A stretch of DNA of 64,000 nucleotides, taken from NCBI GenBank assembly GCA_964431415.1, contig CAYSJS010000001.1, positions 1,740 through 65,739 of the forward strand. Reading direction: 5' to 3'. Positions within the stretch are counted from its first letter, which is position 1. Every line of letters starts with the position of its first letter. The notes under the pieces are model-generated. The model did no database searches, was not told the origin of the DNA, and was given only the letters and a program-made list of their open reading frames with translations. This document shows, one piece after another, positions 1,596-52,244 of this stretch. A program made the translations under genes and the position numbers. This DNA comes from an uncultured Candidatus Saccharibacteria bacterium. GTDB taxonomy: Bacteria > Patescibacteriota > Saccharimonadia > Saccharimonadales > JACDBH01.

Positions 1596-1692
1596 CTAGT
1601 GCAGAGTTTAAGTGTTATTAGATTCCTCGTGCTGAAGAAACTAATGACGCGACACAATTAATTAATAAGCCAGCGTATAGCGTGAGGCGTAT

Positions 1693-1739
1693 AGGGTGTA
1701 GGTAAACTACTTACCCCTAACACCTAACCGCTACACCCT
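1693..1739 (+). promoter_or_regulatory. rpsL leader element with two mutually exclusive pairings
   Basis: agggtgtaggtaa (1693-1705) can pair either with ttacccctaacacc (1711-1724) or with ctacaccct (1731-1739). The element lies just upstream of the GGAG RBS and the TTG start of rpsL. Confidence 0.3.
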
Positions 1740-2856: not shown

Positions 2857-3093
2857 ATGGAAGTTCCTCAAAGTGTAATGAGTTTCGTCCAAAGACGGGT
2901 TGAAGCCGCAACGGGTAGACGTGAGATCTACGAAGGTCGCCTGTCTGTTGACCAAATGCATGGCCTTTCAGTGACGCCTGCTCAAGTTTTAATACGTGGC
3001 GCCCTTTGTACTTTGGAGGCTATTGCACAAGGCACAGAAGAATTTCTGACCTCAGATGAAAAGCTCGATGACTTATTTTCACGAAGAAAGTAA
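2857..3093 (+). CDS. Hypothetical 78-aa protein
   Basis: The ORF starts 3 nt after the rpsG stop on the same strand. No family recognised. Confidence 0.45.
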   Translation: MEVPQSVMSFVQRRVEAATGRREIYEGRLSVDQMHGLSVTPAQVLIRGALCTLEAIAQGTEEFLTSDEKLDDLFSRRK

Positions 3094-3134
3094 ACAGTAT
3101 ATGAAAATTATAAAGCCTGTATTGGCTTGAGGAT

Positions 3135-3344
3135 ATGATAATGAGTGAAGGTACGCCACAAAATGGATTTTCGCTTCTTCCTGAACGCTTCGCTCCGGAA
3201 GACCTTTCTGCGATCAGGGAGCTTGCAAGTGAACTCGATAATCCATCGATGGAAATCGTCAGGGCAGCCCTGGGAAGATTTGAGGAGCATATACTCAGAA
3301 GAAGAAATGAAGGTGGAGAAGGTACACCGCCCCCTACTATGTAG
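3135..3344 (+). CDS. Hypothetical 69-aa protein, weakly ribbon-helix-helix-like
   Basis: The segment FSLLPERFAPEDLSAIRELASELDNPSMEIVRAALGRF has a strand-helix-helix pattern (impression only). The start could instead be the ATG at 3141. Confidence 0.4.
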   Translation: MIMSEGTPQNGFSLLPERFAPEDLSAIRELASELDNPSMEIVRAALGRFEEHILRRRNEGGEGTPPPTM

Positions 3345-3367
3345 GTAGCACTACAGAAAGAAAAGCA

Positions 3368-3634
3368 ATGGCAGAAATTGGAGGAAGACTCAAAGACAAT
3401 GCGTTCACTAATGCTGGCTTTGCCGCTCTGGACGACATTGCTGCTGCAGCTCTAAGGAGAGGTCGTCAGGGCCGGGGCTGTGATATTGAACTGCAACTGG
3501 CTTCCACGGGCGATACGTATCCCCTCGACCCGAGCAGGATTTCAGCCATTCAAGACGCGGTTACCTCCACAACTCTGATGCCAGCTGACGCTGTTAGATG
3601 TGTCGCGATGATTGTTCATGGTGTCATAAAATAA
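3368..3634 (+). CDS. Hypothetical 88-aa protein
   Basis: Same-strand ORF. No family recognised. Confidence 0.4.
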   Translation: MAEIGGRLKDNAFTNAGFAALDDIAAAALRRGRQGRGCDIELQLASTGDTYPLDPSRISAIQDAVTSTTLMPADAVRCVAMIVHGVIK

Positions 3635-3716
3635 TAAAACATGCACGAGAATATCAAGAAGCGCTTTGAAGTGTGACGGCCGAGCATTACCTAATAAAAA
3701 AGTCAGGAGAAATACA

Positions 3717-4064
3717 GTGACACAGCAAGAAGCAGAAAATAGCAGAACCTCCCTTGTATTTGGCGTGTCCAGACAATCGGTAGAAGAGCAGTTTTTAAGC
3801 GGACAGGCCGAGAGTCCGTCGGCTATATATTTTGAGTTGTCGCGCCTCTACGTAGCACTTTCAGGATGTGTCGTAGTCGAGACCGACAATACGTTCTTGT
3901 CCGAAAGTGATTTGGCTACGGCCAAACGAGATGCAGAGGCGGCGCTTGCCTATAGTGTGGCGTATCGCAGTTTTTGCAGCGACACATTTCATAACGACAC
4001 CGTTCAACTTCAACTGCTTGCAGGCTATGTCGATAGCCTACTCAAGGCAAAAGACGAAAGCTAA
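3717..4064 (+). CDS. Hypothetical 115-aa acidic protein
   Basis: A GTG at 3717 is preceded by AGGAG (3704-3708). The longer ORF-track start at 3666 (TTG) lacks an RBS. Confidence 0.45.
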   Translation: MTQQEAENSRTSLVFGVSRQSVEEQFLSGQAESPSAIYFELSRLYVALSGCVVVETDNTFLSESDLATAKRDAEAALAYSVAYRSFCSDTFHNDTVQLQLLAGYVDSLLKAKDES

Positions 4065-4106: not shown

Positions 4107-4135
4107 TTTACTACAGGGGTAAGCTGTAGTATAAT
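4107..4135 (+). promoter_or_regulatory. Candidate promoter for fusA (TTTACT-N17-TATAAT, preceded by gACACc)
   Basis: Hexamers at 4107-4112 and 4130-4135 with an exact 17-nt spacer. Confidence 0.5.
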
Positions 4136-4170
4136 AAGCCCCTGAAGGTACTAACGCAATAGATGCGGAA

Positions 4171-4256
4171 GTAGATAGTAGTTAGGAAGATGGCTCAAAG
4201 AAGGTTTTCTTTTATACGCCCTGTTCTATCTACCGCCTACTACCTACTAACTACTA
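4171..4256 (+). promoter_or_regulatory. fusA leader GTAG/CTAC inverted-repeat element
   Basis: gtagatagtagttagg (4171-4186) is complementary to ctatctac within 4226-4234 and to ctaactacta (4247-4256). The arm order A-B...A'-B' makes the two pairings competing or pseudoknot-like. Confidence 0.35.
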
Positions 4257-4274
4257 AATTACGAAGGAAGAACT

Positions 4275-6402: not shown

Positions 6403-6999
6403 ATGGCAGAACGTGAAATTGTACGTCTACCGGATGAAATAGAAAATCGCGCACTCACGATCTTGTGCGAAGGCGTGTCGAGCATTCAGGTGTCAATGTC
6501 AAGGCGGAGCATTGCAGAAGTATTTGCGAGTCCTGATTACGACGTAATGGTCGACGGAATTAAAAAGCTAGAGGAGCTTTACAGCATACTCGATCCGCCG
6601 GCTATTGTACTAAGACCGTCTCAAGCTGAAGGTGTGGATATAGATAATCTTCCTTCTCACGACCTAGTCGCCAATGTCGCGAGCGCTATAGCTCTATCAC
6701 AGACCGCGACCTATGATCAAAGAATGGAACTACTAGAAACTTGGGCGGGTATATCGTCAGACGGTCCTTATAGGACTATGCCCTCGCCAGAAGCGGCTTG
6801 GGTTGTTGCACAGGAACAACTTATTGACCAACGGGAATGGGCGACGCTCTCCAGGAATGAGGGCAGGATATTCGAAACAACTGCAATGCTTGAAGAGATC
6901 TACGCGGCCGGTCATCGCCCGAATATAGTAAAACACCTTGGCATACTTGCGAGCGGTGTAATCGGTACACTTGCTCGCGCCGTTTGGTATAGACGTTAA
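6403..6999 (+). CDS. Hypothetical 198-aa protein
   Basis: ORF directly after fusA. No family recognised. Confidence 0.5.
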   Translation: MAEREIVRLPDEIENRALTILCEGVSSIQVSMSRRSIAEVFASPDYDVMVDGIKKLEELYSILDPPAIVLRPSQAEGVDIDNLPSHDLVANVASAIALSQTATYDQRMELLETWAGISSDGPYRTMPSPEAAWVVAQEQLIDQREWATLSRNEGRIFETTAMLEEIYAAGHRPNIVKHLGILASGVIGTLARAVWYRR

Positions 7000-7008
7000 T
7001 TTTTGTTC

Positions 7009-7037
7009 TTTACGGACAGTACAATAAAGCTTATACT
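7009..7037 (+). promoter_or_regulatory. Candidate promoter (TTTACG-N17-TATACT) ending 8 nt before the ATG at 7046
   Basis: Hexamers at 7009-7014 and 7032-7037. The geometry suggests a leaderless transcript. Confidence 0.3.
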
Positions 7038-7045
7038 TACTCGTA

Positions 7046-8278
7046 ATGAAGGGTAAAAGGGTAAAGTTTAACTGGCGCATGATAGCTTTGGCAGCAGCGC
7101 TGAGTTTGTCGGCGTTTATTAGACTGCCGGCAGCTGACGCAGCATGTCCTAACAATGCAGGCACGTATGGTTCTGTAAGCGGAAGCTTTACAATTCCAGC
7201 CGCTGGCACATATAAAGTGTGGAGCCGAATAATGCCCGATGCGTCATCGACTACAAACGATTCTTACACCTTAGAAATAGACGGCACCACCTGTGGGGTG
7301 ACGGTAGGTGATGCCGGTACTCTGCCCGCCAATACATGGACATGGGTTGATTACCAAAACGGCAACACTGCCAGCAAGGTTACGGTAACGCTCTCCGCCG
7401 GTACCCATACATACACGATGTTTGGACGAGAAAGCAATGTCATGGTTGATCGGGTTATCTTTGCTTCTAATGCAGCATGTGTAATTAGCGGTCTTGGCGA
7501 TAACTGCATACCTTCTGCTGGCGATACTACGTATCCTACGGTTTCTCTCACTGCGCCTACCAACGGAAGCACGGTGAGCAACACCGTTACCGTGACGGCG
7601 AACGCAGCTGACAACGTAGGAGTTGCCGCGGTTTCGTTTTACTTAGATGGCTCTGCGACGCCTTTTGCTACAGATTCAACCAGCCCATACAGCGTATCGT
7701 GGGTTACGTCTGGCGTGAGCAACGGCAGCCATACACTTACTGCCAAGGCAGCCGATACTTCCGGACTTGTAACTACTTCTTCCGGAGTGGCAGTTACTGT
7801 CGCAAACACGGTGCCTGACACCACCTCGCCTACCGTATCGTTCACTGCTCCTTCTGTGGGAGCAACCCTAAGCGGTACGACAACGGTTACTATGAACGCG
7901 AGTGACAATGTGGGTGTAACCAGAGTTGAACTCTATGCAGATGGCACGCTTATAGGCACAGATACACAGAGTCCGTATAACTTCAGCGTAAACACTACCA
8001 GCTATACAAATGGCAGCCATACATTTATGGCAAGAGCATATGATACTGCAAATAATACGCCGGGCCAGGCTTCGGTTACGGTAACAGTTAACAATGTTAT
8101 TGCAACGCCGAAGGCAGGTGATGTGAACGGTGACAACAAGATTGATGTGTTTGATGCCTCGATTTTGCTCTCGAACTGGGGCAAATCCGGGATGAGCAAG
8201 GCTCAAGGTGACCTGAATGCCGATGGAACCGTGAATGTGTTTGACGCTTCGATATTATTAGCAAACTGGGGGAAATAA
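7046..8278 (+). CDS. Secreted protein: signal peptide, CBM-like beta-sandwich, two Ig-like domains, C-terminal dockerin
   Basis: The N-terminal hydrophobic signal ends in AADA. Two tandem repeats of about 95 aa are present (PTVSLTAPTNGSTVSNTVTVTANAADNVGV... / PTVSFTAPSVGATLSGTTTVTMNASDNVGV...). The C-terminus has duplicated Ca-binding dockerin segments (GDVNGDNKIDVFDASILLSNWGK / GDLNADGTVNVFDASILLANWGK). Confidence 0.75.
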   Translation: MKGKRVKFNWRMIALAAALSLSAFIRLPAADAACPNNAGTYGSVSGSFTIPAAGTYKVWSRIMPDASSTTNDSYTLEIDGTTCGVTVGDAGTLPANTWTWVDYQNGNTASKVTVTLSAGTHTYTMFGRESNVMVDRVIFASNAACVISGLGDNCIPSAGDTTYPTVSLTAPTNGSTVSNTVTVTANAADNVGVAAVSFYLDGSATPFATDSTSPYSVSWVTSGVSNGSHTLTAKAADTSGLVTTSSGVAVTVANTVPDTTSPTVSFTAPSVGATLSGTTTVTMNASDNVGVTRVELYADGTLIGTDTQSPYNFSVNTTSYTNGSHTFMARAYDTANNTPGQASVTVTVNNVIATPKAGDVNGDNKIDVFDASILLSNWGKSGMSKAQGDLNADGTVNVFDASILLANWGK

Positions 8279-8281
8279 GGT

Positions 8282-9502
8282 ATGGGTGTGGTAAAACGAA
8301 CTAAAGCACTACTGCTTGCAGCGATTATGGTAGTCGTGCCGCTGTTCGCTTCTGGTCACGCAGCCGCTGCAGGCTCGGCAAGCTTTAGTTTGAGTCCAAC
8401 CGGCGGAAGCTTTGTGAAGGGCAGCACGCTTACTGTTACGGTTAATGTATCCAGTTCAGACCAGATCAATACCGTTCAAGCCGACATAACATATGACGCA
8501 GCAAAGCTGCAGTATGCTTCGATTGACGGCTCAGGCAGCGCGTTTGACTTCCCACTGGCTGCATCTGGCGGTGGCGGTTCGGTGCAAATCGCACGTGGAG
8601 TTTCTGGTGGCGCAACAGTAAGCGGAACCAAGAAACTTGCTTCAGTTAACTTCACTGTTTTGGTGTCCGGTACTACTGCAACACTGAGTTTTGCTTCCAG
8701 CTCGGCAATCTTGTCTCCTGGCGGCAGCGGTACGACAAACGTATGGAACGGTAATACTACGGGAGGTTCATATACTTTGACAGCTCCTGTTGAAAGTACG
8801 CCTCCACCAGCTAGCGGTTCATCCGGATCTTCGGGTTCTGGTTCAAGCGGTGGAAACAAGAATAATACGCCAGCCCAGCCCTCTAAGCCGGCACAGCCTG
8901 CCGCCCCCGCACAACCTGCTTCTCCCGAGCAGCCTGTTGTAACCAGCGCCCCAGCTGCGAATACCAAGCATCTTGTGGCAATCAAAGTCGTGGACAAAAA
9001 TGACAAAACCAAAAAATCGCTGGATGTGCGCTTGAACGGGGTGACTGTTAAGACTGATGACAAAGGTATTGCTAGCTTTTCTGATGTGCCAACCGGAACC
9101 CACACGGTGACGGTATTTACCTCAAAGGATGTTTCGACGGATATGACCATAGAGGTAAAAGACGGCGACACTACTGCGGTTCAAAGCTATACATTCAAAC
9201 TACCTCAGTCATCGAGCAAAAAATGGATGTATCTAATACTTATCATCCCTGCAGCAATCCTTATTGTTGGGTTGATTCTGGTGGTACGGAGTAAACTCAA
9301 AAATAAGTTAAAAAATGTATATCAAGGAACGGCTCCGGCTGCGTCGGCAATAACCGGTGATTTTGATGCACGTGCAGCCGGTGTACATAAATCATTAGCT
9401 GAAGAGGGTCAACCAGTGGCCCCGCCTGCAACCGTAATCCGTCCAACTGTAACCAACGAGACAGCCAACGAAACCGAGCACGAAAAAGAAAACGGAGAAT
9501 AA
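8282..9502 (+). CDS. Membrane-anchored cohesin-domain protein
   Basis: Domain order: signal peptide, cohesin-like module, linker, beta-sandwich segment, one TM helix. The cohesin-like module reads SASFSLSPTGGSFVKGSTLTVTVNV...VQADITYDAAKLQY...GTKKLASVNFTV. The linker is rich in Pro, Ala and Ser (PAQPSKPAQPAAPAQPASPEQP). The TM helix is WMYLILIIPAAILIVGLILVV. Confidence 0.7.
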   Translation: MGVVKRTKALLLAAIMVVVPLFASGHAAAAGSASFSLSPTGGSFVKGSTLTVTVNVSSSDQINTVQADITYDAAKLQYASIDGSGSAFDFPLAASGGGGSVQIARGVSGGATVSGTKKLASVNFTVLVSGTTATLSFASSSAILSPGGSGTTNVWNGNTTGGSYTLTAPVESTPPPASGSSGSSGSGSSGGNKNNTPAQPSKPAQPAAPAQPASPEQPVVTSAPAANTKHLVAIKVVDKNDKTKKSLDVRLNGVTVKTDDKGIASFSDVPTGTHTVTVFTSKDVSTDMTIEVKDGDTTAVQSYTFKLPQSSSKKWMYLILIIPAAILIVGLILVVRSKLKNKLKNVYQGTAPAASAITGDFDARAAGVHKSLAEEGQPVAPPATVIRPTVTNETANETEHEKENGE

Positions 9503-9504
9503 GA

Positions 9505-11892
9505 GTGCCGGTTCGGCAAATACAGCAGTCTCATCTTGCTGTTCGTAGAGTCATGACACGTTTTAACATATTCTATACAAGGAATAAGAGGTTTGTCGCG
9601 CCAGCTTTGTTTAGCATTGCCTTTGGTCTGCTTGGTCTTATTACGATTTTACTAACACAAGCGGCATCTACGGATTATTTGATAGAGCCGGAAACAGGGA
9701 CTCTCAGCGGAAATGCTGTATCGGTTAATGACGCCGGAGCATCAAATGGCTCCGCGGTTAAGTTTGCTGCAGCCAACGGCGGTAGCTGGAAGACACTAAA
9801 AATTGGCGCGGGTGGTTTTTTGACAGGGATAGATATGTCCAAAGACGGTACGACCCGTGTGGTCCGCACTGATACATACGGAGCATACATATGGCAAACA
9901 AACGAATGGAAGCAGCTGGTGACCAAATCCAGTATGCCGGCTGATGATATTTTGCCATTCACGGGCGGCGGGGTATTTGAAATCGCGGTCGCTCCATCTA
10001 ACGGTAATAGAATATATATGGCTTGGCACGGCACGGTATATATAAGCGAGAACAAAGGCTCTACCTGGTCTAAAACAACGCTAACCGGTAAGGTTTTTGA
10101 TGGCAATGACGGGTACAGAGTTAACGGCAGGAAGATGGTGGTCGATCCGATTAATCCGGACGTAGTCTACTTTGGAATCCCAAACGATGGCGTTTACGTA
10201 ACCACCAACAAAGGCTCTAGCTGGGCTAAGGTAAGTGCCATACCGGTTGCAAATGATGCAGGATACAGTGGCATGGCTTATTACGAAAACGGTGGCCAGA
10301 CTGCCGGAAAAACAAAGACCCTTATTATTCCGGTCTCTGGCGGTAGTGTATACCGTACTGCCGATGCGGGATCTACCTGGAGTAGCATAGGCGGAATCTC
10401 TGACATACAAACCGCTGCAATGTCTACCAATGGCACGTACTATGCTACGAGCTACCCGAACATTTACCGGTACAAGAATGGCGCTTGGTCTGTGATCCTT
10501 GCAAACACAAATGGAAATATGCATTCCGTAGCCGTGGATCCAAATGATCCAACTCATATTGTCTTAGGCCGTGAAAGCGGTGAGATCATCCAAAGCTATA
10601 ACGAGGGAGCTAGTTGGACGAACATCGCCTGGGACCTTAAACAGCGGGTTGCGACAGACATACCCTGGCTCGCCTGGACGGATGAAAATTACATGTCCAA
10701 TGGATTCATGATGTTTGACACGGCAGTACCAGACAAGCTTTGGTTTGCTCAAGGAATTGGCGTATGGCATCTTAAGCCATCGCAAAACGTAAACTCCTAC
10801 ACGTGGAACTCACAAAGCGCCGGAATTGAACAGTTAGTTATAAACGACATAATAAGTCCGCCTGGCGGTAAGCCGATTATTGCAGTATGGGACCGTGGAC
10901 ATTTTAGGATCAACGACCCCGACCAATACCCTGCGACCCACGGACCTACCAACGCTTTTGACAGCACCTGGGACTTGGATTATTCGGGGGGCACGCCTTC
11001 TTTCTTGGTTGCTAACTCCAGTAATTTTGTGCACAAAACAATCAATGCGGGTTATTCTAGCGATGGCGGTGTGACGTGGCAAAAGTTTGCATCAATGCCA
11101 GCCAATGCCGGAAATAACCCAGATATATATGGATATGGCGGCATTGCAGTTGGCGACACTAACCATATGGTATGGATGGGCGGATCAAGTAAGTGGCCTT
11201 ACTATACTGCCAACAGAGGAGCCTCATGGCAGCCCATATCTATGGCTGGTCTAAACCAAGCGACGGCCGATTTAAGCGGTTTTCAGTGGGGTATGTATTT
11301 GCATCGCCATACGGTCGCCTCCGACAAAGTTACTATGAATACTTTTTATCTGCTCTATCTTGCAGGCAACGACAATCAAATGGGTTTTTACCGTTCTACC
11401 GATGGAGGTGCCAACTGGTCCATTGTGGGCAGCATAGCAAATAACAGCGCAGTGTCTAATGATATACGATGGGCAAGCTATAATGCCGAACTTCAAGCCG
11501 TGCCAGGCAAAGCCGGCCACTTATTCTTTACGCCAGGACATTCCGGCACTAGTCCCGATTCGCTAACTCCTTCTGATCAAAAGTTCATACGCTCTACGGA
11601 TGGCGGAGCCACCTGGACGGCAGTCGGCAACGGCAGCGTAAAAGAAGTATATAAGTTTGGATATGGCAAAGCGAAGGACGCTGGCGGCTATCCTTCGATT
11701 TATATTATTGGATGGGTAAGCAACCAGTACGGCATATGGCGGTCAGATGATGAAGGAGTAACGTGGGCAAAGATTGGTGATTACCCAAACGACAGCCTTG
11801 ACTCCGTTGCGGCTATAAGTGGTGATATGAACACATATGGAACCGTCTACATCGGTCTGGGTGGCTCGGGTGCAGTGTATTACAAACTGTAA
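9505..11892 (+). CDS. BNR/Asp-box repeat beta-propeller protein (GH74/sortilin-like) with an N-terminal membrane anchor
   Basis: About nine Asp-box-like motifs are present (SENKGSTW, TTNKGSSW, TADAGSTW, SSDGGVTW, STDGGANW, STDGGATW, SDDEGVTW and others). GTG start with a GGAGA RBS. An ATG at 9553 is an alternative start. Confidence 0.7.
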   Translation: MPVRQIQQSHLAVRRVMTRFNIFYTRNKRFVAPALFSIAFGLLGLITILLTQAASTDYLIEPETGTLSGNAVSVNDAGASNGSAVKFAAANGGSWKTLKIGAGGFLTGIDMSKDGTTRVVRTDTYGAYIWQTNEWKQLVTKSSMPADDILPFTGGGVFEIAVAPSNGNRIYMAWHGTVYISENKGSTWSKTTLTGKVFDGNDGYRVNGRKMVVDPINPDVVYFGIPNDGVYVTTNKGSSWAKVSAIPVANDAGYSGMAYYENGGQTAGKTKTLIIPVSGGSVYRTADAGSTWSSIGGISDIQTAAMSTNGTYYATSYPNIYRYKNGAWSVILANTNGNMHSVAVDPNDPTHIVLGRESGEIIQSYNEGASWTNIAWDLKQRVATDIPWLAWTDENYMSNGFMMFDTAVPDKLWFAQGIGVWHLKPSQNVNSYTWNSQSAGIEQLVINDIISPPGGKPIIAVWDRGHFRINDPDQYPATHGPTNAFDSTWDLDYSGGTPSFLVANSSNFVHKTINAGYSSDGGVTWQKFASMPANAGNNPDIYGYGGIAVGDTNHMVWMGGSSKWPYYTANRGASWQPISMAGLNQATADLSGFQWGMYLHRHTVASDKVTMNTFYLLYLAGNDNQMGFYRSTDGGANWSIVGSIANNSAVSNDIRWASYNAELQAVPGKAGHLFFTPGHSGTSPDSLTPSDQKFIRSTDGGATWTAVGNGSVKEVYKFGYGKAKDAGGYPSIYIIGWVSNQYGIWRSDDEGVTWAKIGDYPNDSLDSVAAISGDMNTYGTVYIGLGGSGAVYYKL

Positions 11893-11960
11893 TTTGTCTG
11901 ATGCATATACACCTGTTCGCTTTATATCGTATGCATAAGATGCTACGCTAAAAACTGGTT

Positions 11961-12557
11961 ATGGCTAAAAATTTCTTAATGCCAACAAAATATGAAGCGG
12001 CAAGCATGTCGGCTTTTGCGGTGTTTGTTTTATTTGCCTTATCGGCTCCACCAATTATTAAACAATCAAATATAGATGTATATTTATTCTTAAGCGACCG
12101 TTTTAGCGGTTGGATTCACCTGCGCTTAGAAGGTCTCGATACGCCTCTTATTACTTCCGTTGTTACTTTCTTGCTTTGGTCGGTAGTGGGTGCACTCGTA
12201 TATATTCTTTTATGGGCAGGCGTAACGGTCGTGAAAGATCTCGATTCCCATATTTCGCCATTTAGACGACTCATGATCCCGAGAGATATAAAAGTCAAAA
12301 AAAGTATTGGGCTTGCACTTGCGCGTATAGGCGTTAGGTTGACGGCTTGCATTGCGCTTATTGCGTGGATTATCTATAGTTTTGAGGCTATTCTGCCGTA
12401 TGCCGTCTTGCTGTTTGGGAATGCATTTGTACGGATTGACCGCTACAGTCCTGTGCAGTTTATTATTGCGTTCTTGCTTACTATGGCGGTTTTTTATGTA
12501 TCCACTGTATTGGCGCGCTTGATTGCTCTTAGAAGCCGCGTGTTAAAAAGCAGTTAG
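11961..12557 (+). CDS. Hypothetical integral membrane protein (198 aa)
   Basis: Several hydrophobic segments in the translation. No family recognised. Confidence 0.5.
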   Translation: MAKNFLMPTKYEAASMSAFAVFVLFALSAPPIIKQSNIDVYLFLSDRFSGWIHLRLEGLDTPLITSVVTFLLWSVVGALVYILLWAGVTVVKDLDSHISPFRRLMIPRDIKVKKSIGLALARIGVRLTACIALIAWIIYSFEAILPYAVLLFGNAFVRIDRYSPVQFIIAFLLTMAVFYVSTVLARLIALRSRVLKSS

Positions 12558-14158: not shown

Positions 14159-14506
14159 ATGAATAATAATGAAATAAGCCCTGTTGCTTCGAATGCTGCA
14201 TTTCGGTTTGCAGAGCAAGGGACCATTGGTCGGACATTGGCGGCCACGATTATAGACACTCCTCAAAGCGAGAGAATTGCCCTGGCCGAGTCCTTGGCAA
14301 GTCTATCCGAGACACATGACGAAGAAGGTGTGCGTACGCGTGCCGGCTGGCTTGCCCGTCAGTTAGTCAAAGAAGTAATCGAAGAAGAACCTTTTTTGCA
14401 CTATGTAGCCGACAGAGAACCGACTTCGTATCGTGATAAACTCGGTAGGCGTGCATTTACGAATGGTCGGCATTCTTCAGGCTTTACACAGCACACCAGT
14501 CCTTAA
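14159..14506 (+). CDS. Hypothetical 115-aa protein
   Basis: ORF after the tuf terminator. No family recognised. Confidence 0.45.
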   Translation: MNNNEISPVASNAAFRFAEQGTIGRTLAATIIDTPQSERIALAESLASLSETHDEEGVRTRAGWLARQLVKEVIEEEPFLHYVADREPTSYRDKLGRRAFTNGRHSSGFTQHTSP

Positions 14507-14579
14507 CGAATACCGAAAAATCAGGCGGCTTATTACGTCATGGCGCTAAACTGTGCAAGCGTGTTATGCTTAAGCTTAA

Positions 14580-15290
14580 GTGAAAAAAGTTACAGCAAAC
14601 AATGTTTTGGCGTGCTTTTCGCCGCCTGTTATGATCGCGACCTTTCTCTTGGAAGGCATACTTGCTGTCTATACGTTCATGCAGTACCGCATGAGCACAA
14701 AGACCAGACTTATCATCCTATTACTTATTAATTTATCTTTGTTCCAGCTTGCTGAATTTTTGGTGTGCACAAACAGTAGTGTAGCCACGCAGGCATCGCG
14801 TTTTGGCTATGCATCGATCACCTTATTGCCGCCGCTCGGACTCTATTTGATGTCCGAGCTCACCTATCCAATGCGAAAAATAGCTGCATTGTTCATGTTT
14901 ATGAGTGCCGTAAGTATCATGGCTTACTTTCTGCTTTCTCCGTCTGCGTTTAACAGCTATCAGTGCACCGGCAATTACGTTATATTCCAGATCGGCACTT
15001 CGCAGATGCGTTTATATAGTCTGTACTACTTTGGTTTGATCGGGTTAAGTCTCTGGAAGGGCGCGCGGTTTTTGACCGAGCATCCAAAAGCCGCCAAAAA
15101 AGTTCGATCAGCCGTACGATGGTTTATAGCGGGGTATCTCGTCTTTATTGTGCCGGTTGCTGTGCTGGTAGTTTTTAACCCTAATACGAAAAAAGCGGTG
15201 CCATCTATCATGTGCGGTTTTGCCGTAAGCTTAGCCCTTATCTTAACGGCAAAAGTTGCACCCTATTCTCTTAAAAAACGGACAAACTAG
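14580..15290 (+). CDS. Hypothetical polytopic membrane protein (236 aa)
   Basis: About 6-7 hydrophobic helices. GTG start without a clear RBS, so the start is uncertain. Confidence 0.55.
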   Translation: MKKVTANNVLACFSPPVMIATFLLEGILAVYTFMQYRMSTKTRLIILLLINLSLFQLAEFLVCTNSSVATQASRFGYASITLLPPLGLYLMSELTYPMRKIAALFMFMSAVSIMAYFLLSPSAFNSYQCTGNYVIFQIGTSQMRLYSLYYFGLIGLSLWKGARFLTEHPKAAKKVRSAVRWFIAGYLVFIVPVAVLVVFNPNTKKAVPSIMCGFAVSLALILTAKVAPYSLKKRTN

Positions 15291-15352
15291 ATTTAATTAT
15301 GCTAAGCTTATCTATAAGAAAGATAAGCGTAAGCAATTAAGGAGAAAAAGCA

Positions 15353-15991
15353 GTGAACCCAGACGAACAAAACAACCAATCAGCTCCGGCGGCAGCACCG
15401 GTCGAGCCTTCTGTAAGCCCCGCTGGTCCACAGCCAGCGTCATATCAACCAGTGTCTACGCAGCCCACTACTGCCCCAAAGGGCAAGGGCAAAGGGTTGC
15501 TTATCGCTCTTTTAGCTCTGCTTCTCATCGGCGGCGGATCAGTGGCGGCATACCAAGTATTTATGAAAGATACAGACGAGAGCCCTGCGGCAAATAATAC
15601 CCAGACAACCGAACCTACCGACAGCACAGAGACAGGAGCAAGTTCGACTACGTTTAACGATTCCGCAAGACAAGCAGCGGTTACTGCATTAGTTGCGGAT
15701 CTTGAGCTCTACTATGGCAAGAAAGGTAATTACCCATCTGCTGCAGAAGTTACCAGCACGTCTTTTGCGTCATCGAGCCTGCCCACATTTAAAAAAGCAC
15801 AGGCGGCCTCAACCGAAACACAGGCAATGACGATTTCTGCCACTTTAAGCGACAGCACGTTTGCGTACAAGACAACGCCGGACGGATGCAACAACTCTTC
15901 AAAGCTCTGTAGTGCGTATGAAGTAAGCGTAAAAGTATCCGCGAAGCAAAAAGACGGCTCATACGTTTACAAAAAAGTATCCATGAACTAA
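15353..15991 (+). CDS. Membrane-anchored extracytoplasmic protein with a Pro-rich N-terminus; the segment after the TM helix is faintly pilin-like
   Basis: AAGGAG RBS and GTG start. TM helix LLIALLALLLIGGGSVAAY. ARQAAVTALVADLELYYGKKGNYPSA resembles the opening of pilin/pseudopilin globular domains (impression only). Confidence 0.5.
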   Translation: MNPDEQNNQSAPAAAPVEPSVSPAGPQPASYQPVSTQPTTAPKGKGKGLLIALLALLLIGGGSVAAYQVFMKDTDESPAANNTQTTEPTDSTETGASSTTFNDSARQAAVTALVADLELYYGKKGNYPSAAEVTSTSFASSSLPTFKKAQAASTETQAMTISATLSDSTFAYKTTPDGCNNSSKLCSAYEVSVKVSAKQKDGSYVYKKVSMN

Positions 15992-16006
15992 TCTCTGATA
16001 AAACAC

Positions 16007-16035
16007 TTTAAATACTTCAGCGAATGTTGTACAAT
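16007..16035 (+). promoter_or_regulatory. Candidate promoter for rpsJ (TTTAAA-N17-TACAAT, preceded by AACAC)
   Basis: Hexamers at 16007-16012 and 16030-16035 with a 17-nt spacer. Confidence 0.4.
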
Positions 16036-16114
16036 TAACCGGTAAACTAACGGTGATGACTAAAAGTCGTTACGAATGCTCTCTATAGCACCGTAAAGAT
16101 GTTACATCCACTTT

Positions 16115-16180
16115 GGTAGATAGAAGATAGTAGTAAGTAGATGGTTTAGACCAACTACTATCTACCAACTACTATCTACC
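16115..16180 (+). promoter_or_regulatory. Long imperfect hairpin in the rpsJ leader built from GTAGATAG/CTATCTAC units
   Basis: The 30-nt arms are 16115-16144 and 16151-16180, with loop tttaga. I count 22 of 30 positions complementary. The 3' arm is a tandem duplication of caactactatctac. The structure ends 12 nt before the AAAGGAG RBS. Confidence 0.5.
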
Positions 16181-16204
16181 TTGACACCTGAAAGGAGTCA
16201 TATT

Positions 16205-16555
16205 ATGGCGGAAGCCAAAAAACCAGCAGCACCAGCAGCTGCACCAGCACAAAAACAGCGAATTCGCATTCGTTTAAAGGCATATGACCATAAGGTCATC
16301 GACCAGTCTGCAAAGCAAATTGTCGACACTGCACTGCGTACCGGTGCAAGCATTGCCGGGCCAATTCCTTTGCCAACACGCCGCAATACGTTTACTGTGG
16401 TTAAAAGCCCGCACGTATTCAAAAAGGGCCGAGAGCAATTCGAAATGCGTATCCACAAGCGTCTTATTGACGTTTTTGAGCCAACACCAAAGACAATCGA
16501 CAGCCTCATGAACCTGAGCCTGCCAGCCGGCTGTGACGCCGAAATTAAGATGTAA
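16205..16555 (+). CDS. rpsJ: 30S ribosomal protein S10 with an Ala/Pro-rich N-terminal extension
   Basis: [18 protein letters not shown]... matches S10. The ATG at 16205 follows AAAGGAG. The ORF-track start at 16181 was trimmed. Confidence 0.95.
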
Positions 16556-16637: not shown

Positions 16638-17141
16638 ATGAGATCGAAACTAATGGTTACAGCAGCAGCTTTAACGGTAGGCGGTGGATTACTGACGGGT
16701 TGTAGTGAGCAACGTGCAAGCAGCAAGGAAGAGGCGAGTAACATGGCCTACGTAAGAGCGGTGGAAGACTTTCAAAAAGCAGACCATAAAGGAAGATATC
16801 GACAGCAGTTTCTAGATGATGATGCATATTTAGAACAAATAGGCGACGATGCTACGTGGTGGAAAAAAGGGAGCGACTGCTTGAGCGGTACAATCTACGA
16901 TACTGAGGCTGGCGCAGAACTCAGTACTGAAGACGATATTTTGATAGTGACACCAAATAGACACGGAGAAACGATACTGTACTTCACGGGAATCACACAT
17001 GCAGATACGGTATTAATCCCAGTTCCAGAAAAGGGTGTTGAAGAAATTTTAGAGAAGTTTAATTGCCCAGATGCATCTGACGTAAGAGAAGTAGCGTCGT
17101 ATGATCATCACCTGCTTGTCATAGATCCAAGAGACGAGTAA
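16638..17141 (+). CDS. Putative lipoprotein (167 aa)
   Basis: Signal peptide with lipobox LLTGC (MRSKLMVTAAALTVGGGLLTGCSEQ). Confidence 0.6.
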   Translation: MRSKLMVTAAALTVGGGLLTGCSEQRASSKEEASNMAYVRAVEDFQKADHKGRYRQQFLDDDAYLEQIGDDATWWKKGSDCLSGTIYDTEAGAELSTEDDILIVTPNRHGETILYFTGITHADTVLIPVPEKGVEEILEKFNCPDASDVREVASYDHHLLVIDPRDE

Positions 17142-17203
17142 GAGCATAGTTGTAATATGGTAGCAACGCTTTCGTCATTTTAGTTTTCTAGTAAACTAAG
17201 TGT

Positions 17204-18109
17204 ATGAATCATTTTGGCGCAAGCTTTTCGTTAATATATGCAAGGGAGATGCGGGTAGAACCAAAGGCCTGTCTTGAGGCGGCATTGGAAGACTTAGGAG
17301 TACGTAGGCTCAGATTAATGAGTTACTGGGACGTGCACGAAAAAACTCGCGGCAGCTATGACTTTACCGAATTAGACTGGCAAATTGACATGGCAGAACA
17401 GCATGGGGCAGAAGTATCGCTTTGTTTGGGCCTGCGTCAGCCGCGCTGGCCCGAAAGTCACTGGCCGGAGTGGGCGCTGCAGCTTCCAGATACAGAATGG
17501 CAAGCGGCTCTCTATAGCTTTATAGAAATAGTAGTAAAGAGATATAAAGACAGAAAGTGCATCATTAGCTATCAGCTTGAAAATGAGGCACTCCTAAAGT
17601 CATTTGGACTGCGGAGTAACTTCGACAGAAAAAGACTGGTACGAGAATTTAAACTCGTAAAGCAACTTGACCCATCTCGCCCGGTAATAATGACGACGTC
17701 CGATGCCTGGGGCATCCCGTGGCGCAGACCTTTGCCCGATATTGTCGGCTTTTCAATCTATCGCTACTTATTTGACGCAAAAAAGAACCGGTACGTAAAA
17801 AGCACAAGACGTGCAAGGTTTTATAGGTTCCGCGCTGTACTTATACGTATACTTCGTTTCAGAAAAACATATATCCATGAGCTGCAAGCCGAACCTTGGG
17901 GACCAAAAGCAACCATCGAATTGCCTGTAGATGAGCAGGCAAAAAGCATGAACCTTGCACATGTTCAGGAGGCCGTCCAGTACGCCCAAGATACAACCTT
18001 GCTTCCGGCAGATCTCTGGGGACTGGAATGGTGGTTCTGGCTGAAAACAAAACACGGCCAAACCGAAATATGGAATTACTTGAAACAAGTTTATAAAAGT
18101 ACACACTAA
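17204..18109 (+). CDS. Putative clan GH-A (TIM-barrel) glycoside hydrolase-like protein
   Basis: W..HE...G.YDF..LD.. opening and YQLENEA (a candidate acid/base NE motif) resemble GH5/GH42-type barrels. Assignment by motif only. Confidence 0.45.
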   Translation: MNHFGASFSLIYAREMRVEPKACLEAALEDLGVRRLRLMSYWDVHEKTRGSYDFTELDWQIDMAEQHGAEVSLCLGLRQPRWPESHWPEWALQLPDTEWQAALYSFIEIVVKRYKDRKCIISYQLENEALLKSFGLRSNFDRKRLVREFKLVKQLDPSRPVIMTTSDAWGIPWRRPLPDIVGFSIYRYLFDAKKNRYVKSTRRARFYRFRAVLIRILRFRKTYIHELQAEPWGPKATIELPVDEQAKSMNLAHVQEAVQYAQDTTLLPADLWGLEWWFWLKTKHGQTEIWNYLKQVYKSTH

Positions 18110-18905: not shown

Positions 18906-19609
18906 TGAGCGTTCCAACATTTACTAAGTCCGGCACAAAGGCTACAACTGCAGCAAAGCTGCCAAAAGGCATATTTGACCTAGAAGTTACTAATCATGAA
19001 CTTTTGAAGCAGGCTTACACTGCCTATATGTCAAACAGCCGCACTGTAAACGCACGCACACTCACTCGCGGCGAAGTTTCTGGTGGCGGCAAGAAGCCAT
19101 GGAAGCAAAAGGGTACAGGCCGTGCACGTTTCGGTTCAATCCGTGTTCCAATTTGGCGCGGTGGTGGTATTACTTTTGGTCCAACAGGCAACGAAAACTT
19201 CACGAAAGAACTCCCTGTAAAGACCAAGCGTCAAGCTATTCGTCAAGCACTCAGTGTTAAGAATGCAGCAATAATTGTTGTTGAAACATTTGACGTAAGC
19301 GCTGGCAAAGTGGCTCCAGTTGTTACGTTCTTAGAAAAGATTGGCGCAACTCGTAACGTACTCGTTGTTGTAGAAAGCAAAGATGCAATGACTACCCGTG
19401 CCACCAAGAACATCCCTAACCTTAAAGTGGTGCAGGCTCGATATCTGAATGTGTATGATCTGCTCAATGCCGACTCCATCGTAATGACAGAGAAGTCACT
19501 CGATATAGTAGCTGAATGGCTCACACCTACCGGCAAAGAGTTAGGAGACAAGAGTCAGGAGACAAGAGTGGCTTCAAAGATTAGTAAAACAGAGGAGAAA
19601 AACTCATGA
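18905..19609 (+). CDS. rplD: 50S ribosomal protein L4 (with a C-terminal extension)
   Basis: SGGGKKPWKQKGTGRARFGS motif. TAATG overlap with rplC. Confidence 0.95.
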   Translation: MSVPTFTKSGTKATTAAKLPKGIFDLEVTNHELLKQAYTAYMSNSRTVNARTLTRGEVSGGGKKPWKQKGTGRARFGSIRVPIWRGGGITFGPTGNENFTKELPVKTKRQAIRQALSVKNAAIIVVETFDVSAGKVAPVVTFLEKIGATRNVLVVVESKDAMTTRATKNIPNLKVVQARYLNVYDLLNADSIVMTEKSLDIVAEWLTPTGKELGDKSQETRVASKISKTEEKNS

Positions 19610-19655
19610 CTCACAACTCATGCCTCATAACTCTGCGACCAAAGGGAGCATTGTA

Positions 19656-20027
19656 ATGAAAGATTTACATATGATTCCGCGCATTAGCGAAAAGGCTTAC
19701 GCACAGAGCCAGCGCGAAAATATTAAGACATATGTCTTTGAAGTACCCGCTTCTTCAAACAAACACACGGTTGCACGTGCTATTACCGCCCAGTATGACG
19801 TGGTTGTTACAAGCGTAAGAACCACAACCGCAAAGGGTAAAGTGAAACAAAGTTACCGCAAAGGCGGCCGCCCAATCACTGGTGTACGTTCTGATGTAAA
19901 GAAAGCCTATGTTACCCTGCGCGCCGGCGATAGCTTACCGCTCTTTGTTGAAGAAGCCAAAGAAGAGGAAAAGCAAGTAAAGGCTGCGGCTAAGGCTGCC
20001 AAGAAAGCAAAGAAGGAGACAAAATAA
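19656..20027 (+). CDS. rplW: 50S ribosomal protein L23 (Lys-rich C-terminal tail)
   Basis: L23-like core (KTYVFEVPASSNKHTVARAI). The ATG at 19656 follows AAAGGGAG. The ORF-track start at 19620 was trimmed. Confidence 0.9.
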   Translation: MKDLHMIPRISEKAYAQSQRENIKTYVFEVPASSNKHTVARAITAQYDVVVTSVRTTTAKGKVKQSYRKGGRPITGVRSDVKKAYVTLRAGDSLPLFVEEAKEEEKQVKAAAKAAKKAKKETK

Positions 20028-32090: not shown

Positions 32091-32546
32091 ATGCATCGAC
32101 ACGGATATAAAGGCCGCAAATTCGGCCGTGAACGAGATCAGCGCGCCGCCCTCATTAAGGGCTTGGCTTCTGCGCTCGTTGATCATGGAGCAATAGAAAC
32201 CACACTTCCAAAAGCAAAAGCTGTAGTACCCTACACAGAAAAACTCATCACTAAAGCTAAGCGCGGCGATCTTCACAACCGCCGCCAAGTGATTAGCTCA
32301 CTAAACACGCTCGCGACCGCTCACAAGCTCGTTGACGAGATAGCACCAAAGCTAACCCACCGCGTAAGCGGACACTTGCGCATCGAAAAGATCGGCACAC
32401 GCCGCGGTGACAACAGCGACATGGCACGCGTAAGTTTTGTTGATGACCTAAAGCAGGCTCCGGTGGCAAAGCCAGCCGCGCCAGCAGAGTCAAGAGTCAA
32501 GAGTAAAGAGTCAAGAAAAGCTCCAAAGACAAAGGAGACGAAATAA
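32091..32546 (+). CDS. rplQ: 50S ribosomal protein L17 (C-terminal low-complexity extension)
   Basis: MHRHGYKGRKFGRERDQR...TTLPKAK. Confidence 0.95.
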   Translation: MHRHGYKGRKFGRERDQRAALIKGLASALVDHGAIETTLPKAKAVVPYTEKLITKAKRGDLHNRRQVISSLNTLATAHKLVDEIAPKLTHRVSGHLRIEKIGTRRGDNSDMARVSFVDDLKQAPVAKPAAPAESRVKSKESRKAPKTKETK

Positions 32547-51653: not shown

Positions 51654-51944
51654 TCATGCAGTTTGCCTATACTCAACGACCATATCGCTAGCTGTCATAT
51701 ATTCCTCCAATGTCCACTGTAACGTGTCGGTGTTGAGAGCAAGCTTAAAATACGCTTGCCCAAGTATGTCGGCGATAGAAAAGTGGTGAACAAGCAGATC
51801 ACCCTGTTTCGTCTTATGCCAAAAATCTATTTTTCCCAGCGCGTATTCCTGACCGTTCCAGTTCAGACGATGCGGCTTGAAGCTACGGCTTTTTGCGTTG
51901 TAGAACCATATAACACTTACGGGTTCATCTAAACTTTCCCTCAT
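51654..51944 (-). CDS. Unknown 96-aa protein, paralog A
   Basis: Shares the pattern W..Q.Y.LG...FW....G..LVHH......G.Y.F.LA..T..L.W.LE with the 52245-52556 product. The ATG at 51944 follows AAGGAGG. ATGA overlap with the upstream small ORF. Confidence 0.6.
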   Translation of the reverse strand: MRESLDEPVSVIWFYNAKSRSFKPHRLNWNGQEYALGKIDFWHKTKQGDLLVHHFSIADILGQAYFKLALNTDTLQWTLEEYMTASDMVVEYRQTA

Positions 51945-52132
51945 AATGACATGCACCTCCTTGTCCTGCTTCTTGGCAGAGCCAAGAACCCGCCAAGGAT
52001 TTTGCCATATCGCGGCGTTGCCGATTGTGCTGCTCGTTCACCGTATACTAAATACGCCTCACTGCGCTGCTCATCGGCGCCTAGCGCTATTGGCAAATGC
52101 ATGCCATTCTGCGCGAAAGTACTTTCTCTCAT
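51941..52132 (-). CDS. Hypothetical 63-aa protein coupled to paralog A
   Basis: Same 32-nt RBS and first-codon block as paralog A (MRES...). Its stop overlaps the start of paralog A. Confidence 0.4.
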   Translation of the reverse strand: MRESTFAQNGMHLPIALGADEQRSEAYLVYGERAAQSATPRYGKILGGFLALPRSRTRRCMSL

Positions 52133-52244
52133 GATGACACGCACCTCCTTGTGGAGATTGCAGGGTATAGCGGATAGCGTTTAGGGTTTAGCAAAGCCGC
52201 AGCTACTTCACCCTGACCGCTGCACGCCGCACGCTTGTCTTGGC

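Follow-up and report, generated by a model that had tools for sequence, protein, structure and literature searches.

The 64,000-nucleotide stretch of contig CAYSJS010000001.1 considered here, referred to as the window, is Saccharibacteria DNA from the candidate phyla radiation with a G+C content of 47%. It carries rpoC, rpsL, rpsG, fusA, and tuf as well as the S10-spc-alpha cluster of ribosomal protein genes. A 66-nt hairpin (positions 16115-16180) lies just upstream of the Shine-Dalgarno (SD) sequence of rpsJ, the gene for ribosomal protein S10. Both of its arms are built from 7-nt units (heptads), and elements of the same build, termed heptad foldbacks, recur at the starts of many other genes in related genomes. 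The hairpin and this class are the subject of the present analysis, which draws on 80 related Saccharibacteria loci that were retrieved via the S10 protein and are labeled L001 and so on. These loci comprise about 20 kb per genome, all of it ribosomal-cluster DNA.

The rpsJ hairpin folds as a single unbranched stem of 24 pairs, with 31-nt arms, a UUAG loop, and a minimum free energy of −27.3 kcal/mol. None of 200 dinucleotide shuffles folds equally well (z −5.9), and a separate shuffle yields a z of −5.1. The 5′ arm has a period of 7, with a self-identity of 0.71 at lag 7, and contains stop triplets in all three frames. The 3′ arm is devoid of G and is reported by Tandem Repeats Finder (TRF) both as 2.2 copies of a 14-nt period with 100% matches and as 4.4 copies of a 7-nt period. 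Rfam 15, run at gathering thresholds and in E-value mode, offers no bacterial family that matches the hairpin. At gathering thresholds, the only matches in the window are four tRNAs, to which E-value mode adds nothing but sub-threshold miRNA-precursor hairpins on the minus strand. A preliminary description of this DNA, made from the sequence alone, is borne out in its structural part: it had reported a 66-nt imperfect hairpin upstream of the rpsJ ribosome-binding site (now with a z of about −5 to −6), a 3′ arm formed by tandem duplication, and a lack of resemblance to any known ribosomal leader, in agreement with the absence of a matching Rfam family. Its count of 22 complementary positions out of 30 was roughly correct, while its 12-nt gap between the hairpin and AAAGGAG measures 10 nt. 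The start codon of rpsJ is the ATG at 16205. The features of the leader and the other heptad copies in the window are collected in Table 1.

Table 1. Positions of the rpsJ-leader features and of the heptad copies in the window
Feature	Position	Strand	Basis or remark
Promoter-like site for the rpsJ leader, TTTAAA, 17-nt spacer, TACAAT	16007..16035	+	consensus scan only
Conserved S10-leader motif: P1, invariant UGACUAAAAGUC, P2 hairpin, invariant GAUGUUACA, P1 3′ strand	16053..16111	+	40-leader alignment
5′ arm of the heptad foldback, GGTAGAT AGAAGAT AGTAGTA AGTAGAT GGT	16115..16145	+	fold, repeat scan
Apical loop UUAG	16146..16149	+	fold
3′ arm, ACC then two exact copies of CAACTACTATCTAC	16150..16180	+	TRF, fold
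SD mini-hairpin UGAC..GUCA holding AAAGGAG (16191-16197)	16181..16200	+	folds; directly adjoins the big hairpin
rpsJ (ribosomal protein S10, 116 aa)	16205..16555	+	Pfam Ribosomal_S10 on identical protein; 80 homologous loci
Paralogous fusA-leader copy: 5′ arm 4170-4192, loop ~30 nt, 3′ arm 4224-4257 (CTACTAA x3)	4170..4257	+	
rpsL-leader foldback, units AGCGTAT/AGGGTGT ... CCTAACA/GCTACAC (different unit family)	1672..1739	+	z −4.3; rpsL start 1762
rplD-rplW junction foldback	19536..19633	+	z −3.7; TRF period 14 in both arms
One-armed heptad array AGAGTCA, 4.4 copies	32486..32516	+	inside rplQ 3′ end, upstream of rplM
Foldback outside the ribosomal cluster, units like the rpsL copy	52151..52240	-	fold no better than shuffles, z 0.1

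The full rpsJ leader folds as three independent domains (z −4.9), namely the leader motif, the heptad hairpin, and the SD mini-hairpin. Of the 80 related loci, 40 share the motif that lies upstream of the hairpin, and many have a −10-like box similar to that of the window about 25 nt 5′ of it. Compensatory double changes affect 8 of the 16 predicted pairs in the 40-leader alignment, and both helices covary strongly; one P1 pair, for instance, is CG in 18 leaders, AU in 14, GC in 4, GU in 3, and UA in 1. The P2 hairpin varies among loci, and other loci carry a second leader variant (GAGAACU ... AGGUUAC) in place of the motif. Neither the motif nor the variant has a match in Rfam 15. The motif is likely a candidate new ribosomal-protein leader RNA. 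It is more plausibly a regulator, a predicted role, than is the heptad hairpin, and it would better fit the regulatory RNA that the preliminary description had proposed. Downstream, the SD mini-hairpin has analogs of the form GAC..GGAGUC, which follow the heptad hairpins of L001, L007, L012, L056, L069, and L075.

Between the leader motif and the SD sequence lies a variable slot that, in most of the 80 genomes, is filled by a 15-25 nt hairpin or by nothing. A slot hairpin of 66-75 nt is found only in the window, L001, L007, L012, L056, and L075; that of L069 folds weakly, and the versions of L024 and L033 are one-armed. The best self-similarity period is 7 in every long slot version. In total, about 7-9 of ~55 Saccharibacteria S10 leaders have the long hairpin, and in an approximate seven-protein tree, their genomes are scattered and have sister genomes without it. 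In L036, a sister of L001, the leader motif directly adjoins the SD sequence, and in L073, a sister of L007 and L012, the SD sequence comes straight after the motif. Because the slot is variable and the long hairpin is absent from sister genomes, the hairpin does not belong to the S10 leader as an integral component.

The position of the hairpin invites comparison with known S10 leaders. That of E. coli has a long hairpin before the SD sequence and is bound by L4, which uses hairpin HE. In the window, the ~165-nt rpsJ leader likewise places a long hairpin last, ahead of the SD sequence, and has a covarying motif directly upstream of it. An L4-type circuit, in which a ribosomal protein on the upstream motif would use the heptad hairpin as an attenuator or pause site to stop transcription or to block translation, is nevertheless very unlikely. 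No terminator-like site is present on the + strand in 15900-16300, and the hairpin is followed by UUGACACC, which contains no U-tract; for lack of a U-tract, the identity of the hairpin as a terminator or attenuator was rejected. Many genomes, moreover, have the same motif without a slot hairpin. The window thus shares with the S10 leaders of E. coli and of Firmicutes (an S10 r-leader of the latter is mentioned in PMC7247131) the location in the 5′ untranslated region (5′ UTR) of the rpsJ operon, next to a conserved and covarying motif, whereas the heptad hairpin, unlike autoregulatory S10 leaders, is not conserved across the clade, matches no Rfam family, and has no terminator.

Long slot hairpins are one manifestation of a broader class. 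Over the 1.37 Mb of loci scanned for tandem repeats, TRF reports 59 arrays of period 7 and at most 10 of any other period, counting only arrays of at least 2.8 copies. A lag-identity scan returns 145 clusters of period 7, 13 of period 8, and 5 of period 5. A reverse-complementary partner lies within 130 nt of 65 of the 145 period-7 arrays, compared to 21 for a control region at a distance of 1 kb. Array occurrence is concentrated in some 10 genomes that are scattered on the tree (the window, L005, L007, L024, L033, L050, L063, L073, L075, and L078). When presence was tabulated in a matrix of 21 genes by 81 genomes, heptad elements were found upstream of 17 of the 21 scored genes, with counts of 8/76 for rpsJ, 7/65 for rpsC, 5/49 for rplF, and 4/59 for fusA; further genes with such upstream elements include rpsL, rpsG, tuf, rplD, rplW, rplB, rplP, rpsQ, rpsN, and rpsH. 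The unit differs by copy and by genome (GTAGATA, ACAGTNN, CTAGGTT, CCATTTA, AATTAGY, GAGACAA, and others). A very long array region of AAGTTTC and AATGCCA/AATGACA units lies upstream of rpsG in L007 (4522-4799) and is broken by an assembly N run, which suggests that such arrays can break assemblies.

Copies within one genome can be closely related. The ~115-nt elements upstream of rpsC and rpsQ in L007 differ by only a few mismatches, similar paralogous pairs precede rplB and rpsN in L075 and rplD and rpsC in both L050 and L063, and the 5′-UTR copy of L007 rpsJ is related to the intercistronic copies of the same genome. A search with 9-mer words for further copies within each locus yielded mostly noise. 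The window itself has six heptad-array sites. Its rpsL and 52.2 kb copies are related in sequence by window alignment, and the latter is followed by the SD sequence AGGAGG and an ATG at 52131 that opens a small gene. Two tandem paralogous small genes lie in this region (51940-52135, minus strand), each after a near-identical start region, AGGAGGTGC(A/G)TGTCAT(C/T)ATGAG(A/G)GAAAGT, and only the first of them has a heptad foldback upstream. Heptad arrays can also be part of coding sequence: they form the C-terminal tails of L17 (32486-32516) and L4 (19536-19609) in the window, and in L033 (18189-18239) and L024 (18765-18809), the usual L24 start is separated from an upstream ATG by an in-frame array.

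The rpsJ hairpin of the window has a paralog in the fusA leader. Allowing at most one mismatch, the window contains 7 matches to the word GTAGATAGTAG where 0.54 are expected, and each of them falls in the rpsJ leader or in the fusA leader (4171-4254). Aligned arm to arm, the two leaders agree at 20 of 24 positions (5′ arms) and at 18 of 20 (3′ arms), with a score of 30 against a window background with a mean of 13.9, a standard deviation of 2.3, and a maximum of 29. The two leaders have these words in common because the two copies are paralogs. The fusA copy is a weak hairpin (z −1.7 alone and 0.25 for the entire leader), and it is accompanied by a promoter-like site at 4107-4135 and the fusA ATG at 4275. 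In metagenomes, at least 120 contigs contain the shared 20-nt word in very mixed contexts; among the matches listed, 24 are foldbacks and 15 lie in CTA trinucleotide satellites. Given these mixed contexts, satellites included, the word is low-specificity simple sequence and not a marker of the element. Also among the matches listed (loci L091-L210), many unrelated contigs contain foldbacks of GTAG/CTAC-type heptads; a GTAG-rich arm precedes a CTAC-rich arm in 23 of 25 of them, independent of strand, and several adjoin an ATG (for instance L102, L108, L111).

The recurrence of the hairpin words in the fusA leader, as noted in the preliminary description, is therefore real. The cis-regulatory or protein-binding RNA element common to rpsJ and fusA that it proposed on this basis is not supported, as the hairpin is rare in S10 leaders and elements of the same type lie upstream of many other genes. 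It had also considered that the words might stem from a genome-wide dispersed repeat unrelated to leaders. A dispersed class is indeed what was found, but it is tightly tied to translation-start regions. The most specific form of a shared RNA element would be a binding site for a putative HutP/TRAP-type oligomer that recognizes NAG triplets spaced by 7 nt on the 5′ arm and thereby controls the fold. HutP binds UAG-N4-UAG-N4-UAG, and about five (N)AG or (N)GG triplets at an exact 7-nt spacing are present in the 5′ arms of seven rpsJ hairpins, with similar words in the fusA copy. This explanation is quite improbable: other family members have no NAG on the 5′ arm (AAACTCC, CCATTTA), sister leaders are otherwise intact but have no hairpin, there is neither a terminator nor an alternative structure to control, the fusA copy barely folds, and no candidate binding protein came up, though no search aimed at one was made.

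Filled junctions were compared with empty ones in sister genomes. In all 14 such pairs, the insertion is precise and lies directly after the old ATG, and the old SD sequence and the old ATG, the latter overlapping the upstream stop codon, are retained at the 5′ edge. At its 3′ end, an intercistronic element supplies a new SD sequence and, as TAATG or TGATG, a stop codon that overlaps the real start. A mini open reading frame (mini-ORF) of about 16-85 codons, mostly 30-50, begins at the old ATG and spans both arms. Examples are found in L007 (15223-15341 and 16688-16804), L050, L063, L075, L033, L024, L073, and the window (19606-19658). In the window example, rplD continues through the 5′ arm and loop of the junction foldback to a TGA at 19607-19609, and the ATGA overlap at its end opens a 16-codon mini-ORF that runs through the 3′ arm and the SD sequence to end in TAATG on the rplW start (19656). 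In the heptad foldbacks, no fixed-sequence terminal inverted repeats were seen, nor any target-site duplication apart from the ATG. The rpsJ copy of the window, located in a 5′ UTR, has no clear ends, unlike the sharp ATG-to-ATG ends of the 14 filled/empty comparisons.

Intercistronic and 5′-UTR copies differ in their reading frames. In the 110 nt upstream of the start codon, 30 intercistronic copies contain 101, 18, and 100 stops in the three frames, the frame with 18 being the one that ends on the start codon, and 23 of the 30 have no stop at all in this overlap frame. Another 16 copies lie in 5′ UTRs or head an operon, among them those of rpsJ, fusA, and rpsL in the window; they contain 50, 43, and 37 stops per frame, and none has an open frame that ends at the start codon. 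This contrast demonstrates that translation through the intercistronic copies is under selection. Its most economical reading is that translational coupling would be relayed across the insertion. A frame-independent stop signal, for which the stop-rich arm would have to come first in every copy, was considered and rejected, with 152 stops in 5′ arms and 160 in 3′ arms.

Pairing within the foldbacks is largely indifferent to strand. The antisense of the rpsJ hairpin is more stable than the sense (−31.8 versus −27.3), and across 43 hairpins, the sense strand is the more stable in 19 and the antisense in 23. The sense fold contains 141 G-U pairs and the antisense fold 164. By this crude test, the lack of a sense-strand bias argues against strong RNA-specific selection on pairing. 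Strand-symmetric pairing would also suit an element that acts as DNA only, be it a phase-variable repeat, a cruciform or recombination hot spot, or an operator array, and heptanucleotide repeats are a classic slippage-prone class (Mrazek 2007, as cited in PMC4679880). A purely DNA-level role without function in RNA is, however, highly improbable. Ten contigs from other samples that encode an identical S10 protein have the same hairpin with an unchanged repeat number, a weak test given that they are 99.9-100% identical overall and essentially one strain, and no close but non-identical relative of the window strain turned up; the open frame of intercistronic copies indicates selection at the level of translation; and a 7-bp spacing misfits the helical repeat for binding to double-stranded DNA. 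A module for RNase III cleavage or mRNA stability is a likelier role than any of the three alternatives of an NAG-repeat binding protein, an attenuator, or an effect at the DNA level only.

On balance, the rpsJ hairpin is probably, though not securely, one copy of a lineage-restricted, dispersed family of foldbacks with arms of 7-nt units that is tolerated where expression is undisturbed. Judged from its sequence and context, it is most likely an inserted, self-contained foldback that the leader tolerates and that RNase III could possibly cleave, and it does not look like a dedicated ribosomal regulator. The proposed life cycle of such a copy has four parts: (i) the arms would grow via 7-nt replication slippage, (ii) they would stay complementary via arm-to-arm copying or selection, (iii) copies would spread between start regions via similar flanking SD-ATG sequences, and (iv) copies would be tolerated only where expression is undisturbed. 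What tolerance entails would depend on context. In a 5′ UTR, a compact stem-loop would keep the leader motif and the SD sequence close together without a long unstructured RNA, and between cistrons, the copy would be translated so that coupling is relayed. The rpsJ hairpin can occupy a permissive leader slot because it folds back on itself, and in the rpsJ mRNA, it would be a structural expansion in the P3 position rather than a regulator. With 24 bp and internal loops, it is nonetheless a plausible RNase III substrate and could tune mRNA stability or expression.

A more far-reaching version of this explanation can be put forward only tentatively. According to it, the heptad foldbacks are undescribed self-propagating elements of ~70-150 nt that insert exactly at start codons, bring their own SD sequence, and keep an intercistronic mini-ORF that relays coupling, while the rpsJ and fusA copies would be 5′-UTR members, long retained at the S10 leader as RNA-processing or ribosome-loading modules. 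Neither heptad foldbacks nor start-codon insertions with coupled mini-ORFs turned up in the literature searched, be it for Saccharibacteria, for the candidate phyla radiation, or for other organisms.

Several observations weigh against a tolerated dispersed family as the full explanation. The sampled loci consist of ribosomal-cluster DNA only, so the link to gene starts could partly be a sampling bias. No transposase or other mobility factor was seen in these loci, and spread through similar SD-ATG flanks is an inference. Mismatches within the stems are not neutral with respect to strand, given that purines prevail in the symmetric internal loops of the sense strand (58 A.A versus 31 U.U and 12 G.G versus 2 C.C). 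The seven rpsJ hairpins from different clades can be aligned with one another. They are 66-75 nt long with ~4.5 heptads per arm, repeat an R-G dinucleotide each 7 nt on the 5′ arm, have a tetraloop in 4 of the 7 cases, and show compensatory changes at their pairs; those of the window and L056, both 66 nt, are collinear and differ by three double changes by manual count. MAFFT and RNAalifold recover only 8 pairs from these seven hairpins, in which the repeat arms slip, and a loop-anchored alignment by eye is more informative. The likeness has the look of maintenance over a long time and might point to an rpsJ-specific function. The rpsJ copy may be old and maintained in some lineages, or arm-to-arm copying may preserve the similarity of its arms.

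An alternative explanation is that the hairpin is a selected RNase III site that would tune expression, its predicted cleavage separating rpsJ from the leader motif or altering mRNA stability or translation. This alternative overlaps with the tolerated-foldback explanation but asserts a selected function. The hairpin has a suitable form, with 24 bp of heptamer-built stem, internal loops, and a 5′-UTR position, and its shape is kept in seven genomes. A further parallel comes from rRNA intervening sequences, which are excised by RNase III. In L033 (5293-5736) and L024 (4955-5395), heptad arms ~400 nt apart flank a 23S_rRNA_IVP gene (PF05635, E 1e-37) between rpsG and fusA, in the layout of an rRNA intervening sequence. 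A search for more 23S_rRNA_IVP genes flanked by heptad arms returned these two loci only. They resemble 23S rRNA intervening sequences in that the arms flank an IVP gene, and they differ in that the host is an mRNA spacer; the copies of the window have no gene in the loop.

The nearest experimentally tested analog is the hmw1A 5′ UTR of H. influenzae, in which one side of a long hairpin consists of ten ATCTTTC repeats and cleavage of the hairpin by RNase III raises expression (PMC12721329). Like hmw1A, the rpsJ leader has tandem heptanucleotide units in a presumably transcribed 5′ UTR, where they build an arm of a long hairpin shortly before the coding region. The two differ in that only one arm of the hmw1A hairpin is a repeat, the other being G-rich, whereas both arms are arrays in rpsJ. 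Moreover, hmw1A is a phase-variable contingency locus of an adhesin, whereas rpsJ is a housekeeping ribosomal gene that shows no variation in repeat number among the ten near-identical contigs. Against a selected RNase III site stand the sister genomes without the hairpin and the lack of G-U enrichment on the sense strand. No RNase III signature motif was found in the window or in the ribosomal-cluster DNA of the related loci. A selected module of this kind is possible for the rpsJ hairpin, but it must be considered unlikely.

As a class, the heptad foldbacks combine traits that are known separately from other repeats. REP/BIME (repetitive extragenic palindromic sequences and the mosaic elements built from them), Correia, and other elements resembling miniature inverted-repeat transposable elements (MITEs) are short palindromes that occur in many copies within transcribed intergenic DNA. 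Heptad foldbacks likewise have paralogous copies at unrelated sites in one genome, while they differ from REP and MITE elements in their internally periodic arms, their insertion exactly at start codons, and the SD sequence at their 3′ end.

Tandem heptamers near start codons, in turn, have been described as TAACTGA direct repeats in marine Beggiatoaceae, cyanobacteria, and Bacteroidetes, where they closely precede start codons, among others those of the genes for fusA, L3, and S4 (PMC4679880). In Beggiatoaceae, the repeats are found before fusA and before several genes of ribosomal proteins, each at an internal position of the standard operons; their function is unknown, they have no predicted structure, and only one indirect repeat occurs among 170 sets (PMC4679880). 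Further examples are the heptamer repeats near start codons of cyanobacteria (Nostoc; bioRxiv 10.1101/2022.06.06.494920) and the GGGNATC repeats of Xanthomonas and Nostoc (PMC4692102). Heptanucleotides are also given as the most abundant class of long simple sequence repeats (SSRs) in most SSR-rich prokaryotic genomes, possibly through polymerase slippage (Mrazek 2007, as cited in PMC4679880). The Saccharibacteria arrays resemble TAACTGA-type repeats in their tandem 7-nt units, their many copies per genome, their location from a few to tens of nt ahead of start codons, and their patchy phylogenetic distribution. In contrast to these direct repeats of a fixed unit, they have variable units, inverted pairs that fold, and intercistronic mini-ORFs.

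The surroundings of the rpsJ hairpin have further peculiarities. Non-ribosomal blocks break the str and S10 clusters of the window at rpsG/fusA, fusA/tuf, tuf/rpsJ, and rpsJ/rplC (2857-4064, 6403-12557, 14159-15991, and 16638-18109, respectively), and a Pfam scan of eight open reading frames (ORFs) from these blocks returned no matches. The ORFs at 7046-8278 and 8282-9502 have signal-peptide-like N-termini, and the former encodes a long, repetitive, Thr/Ser-rich protein. The S10 protein itself has an N-terminal extension that is encoded by a CAG/CCA-rich tandem repeat with a period of 9 or 12 (16222-16250 in the window) and differs in length between related genomes.

Heptanucleotide repeats have long been known to be abundant in bacteria, and their function is still unknown. 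On its own, the rpsJ hairpin is a curiosity of one uncultured genome, and the class behind it is more informative. This class shows that heptanucleotide repeats can form inverted pairs and colonize the translation-start regions of essential operons. The contrast between its two contexts, an open frame between cistrons and a compact hairpin in the 5′ UTR, constitutes a natural experiment on what ribosomal operons tolerate, and it makes translational coupling, and possibly surveillance by Rho or RNase III, testable in Patescibacteria.

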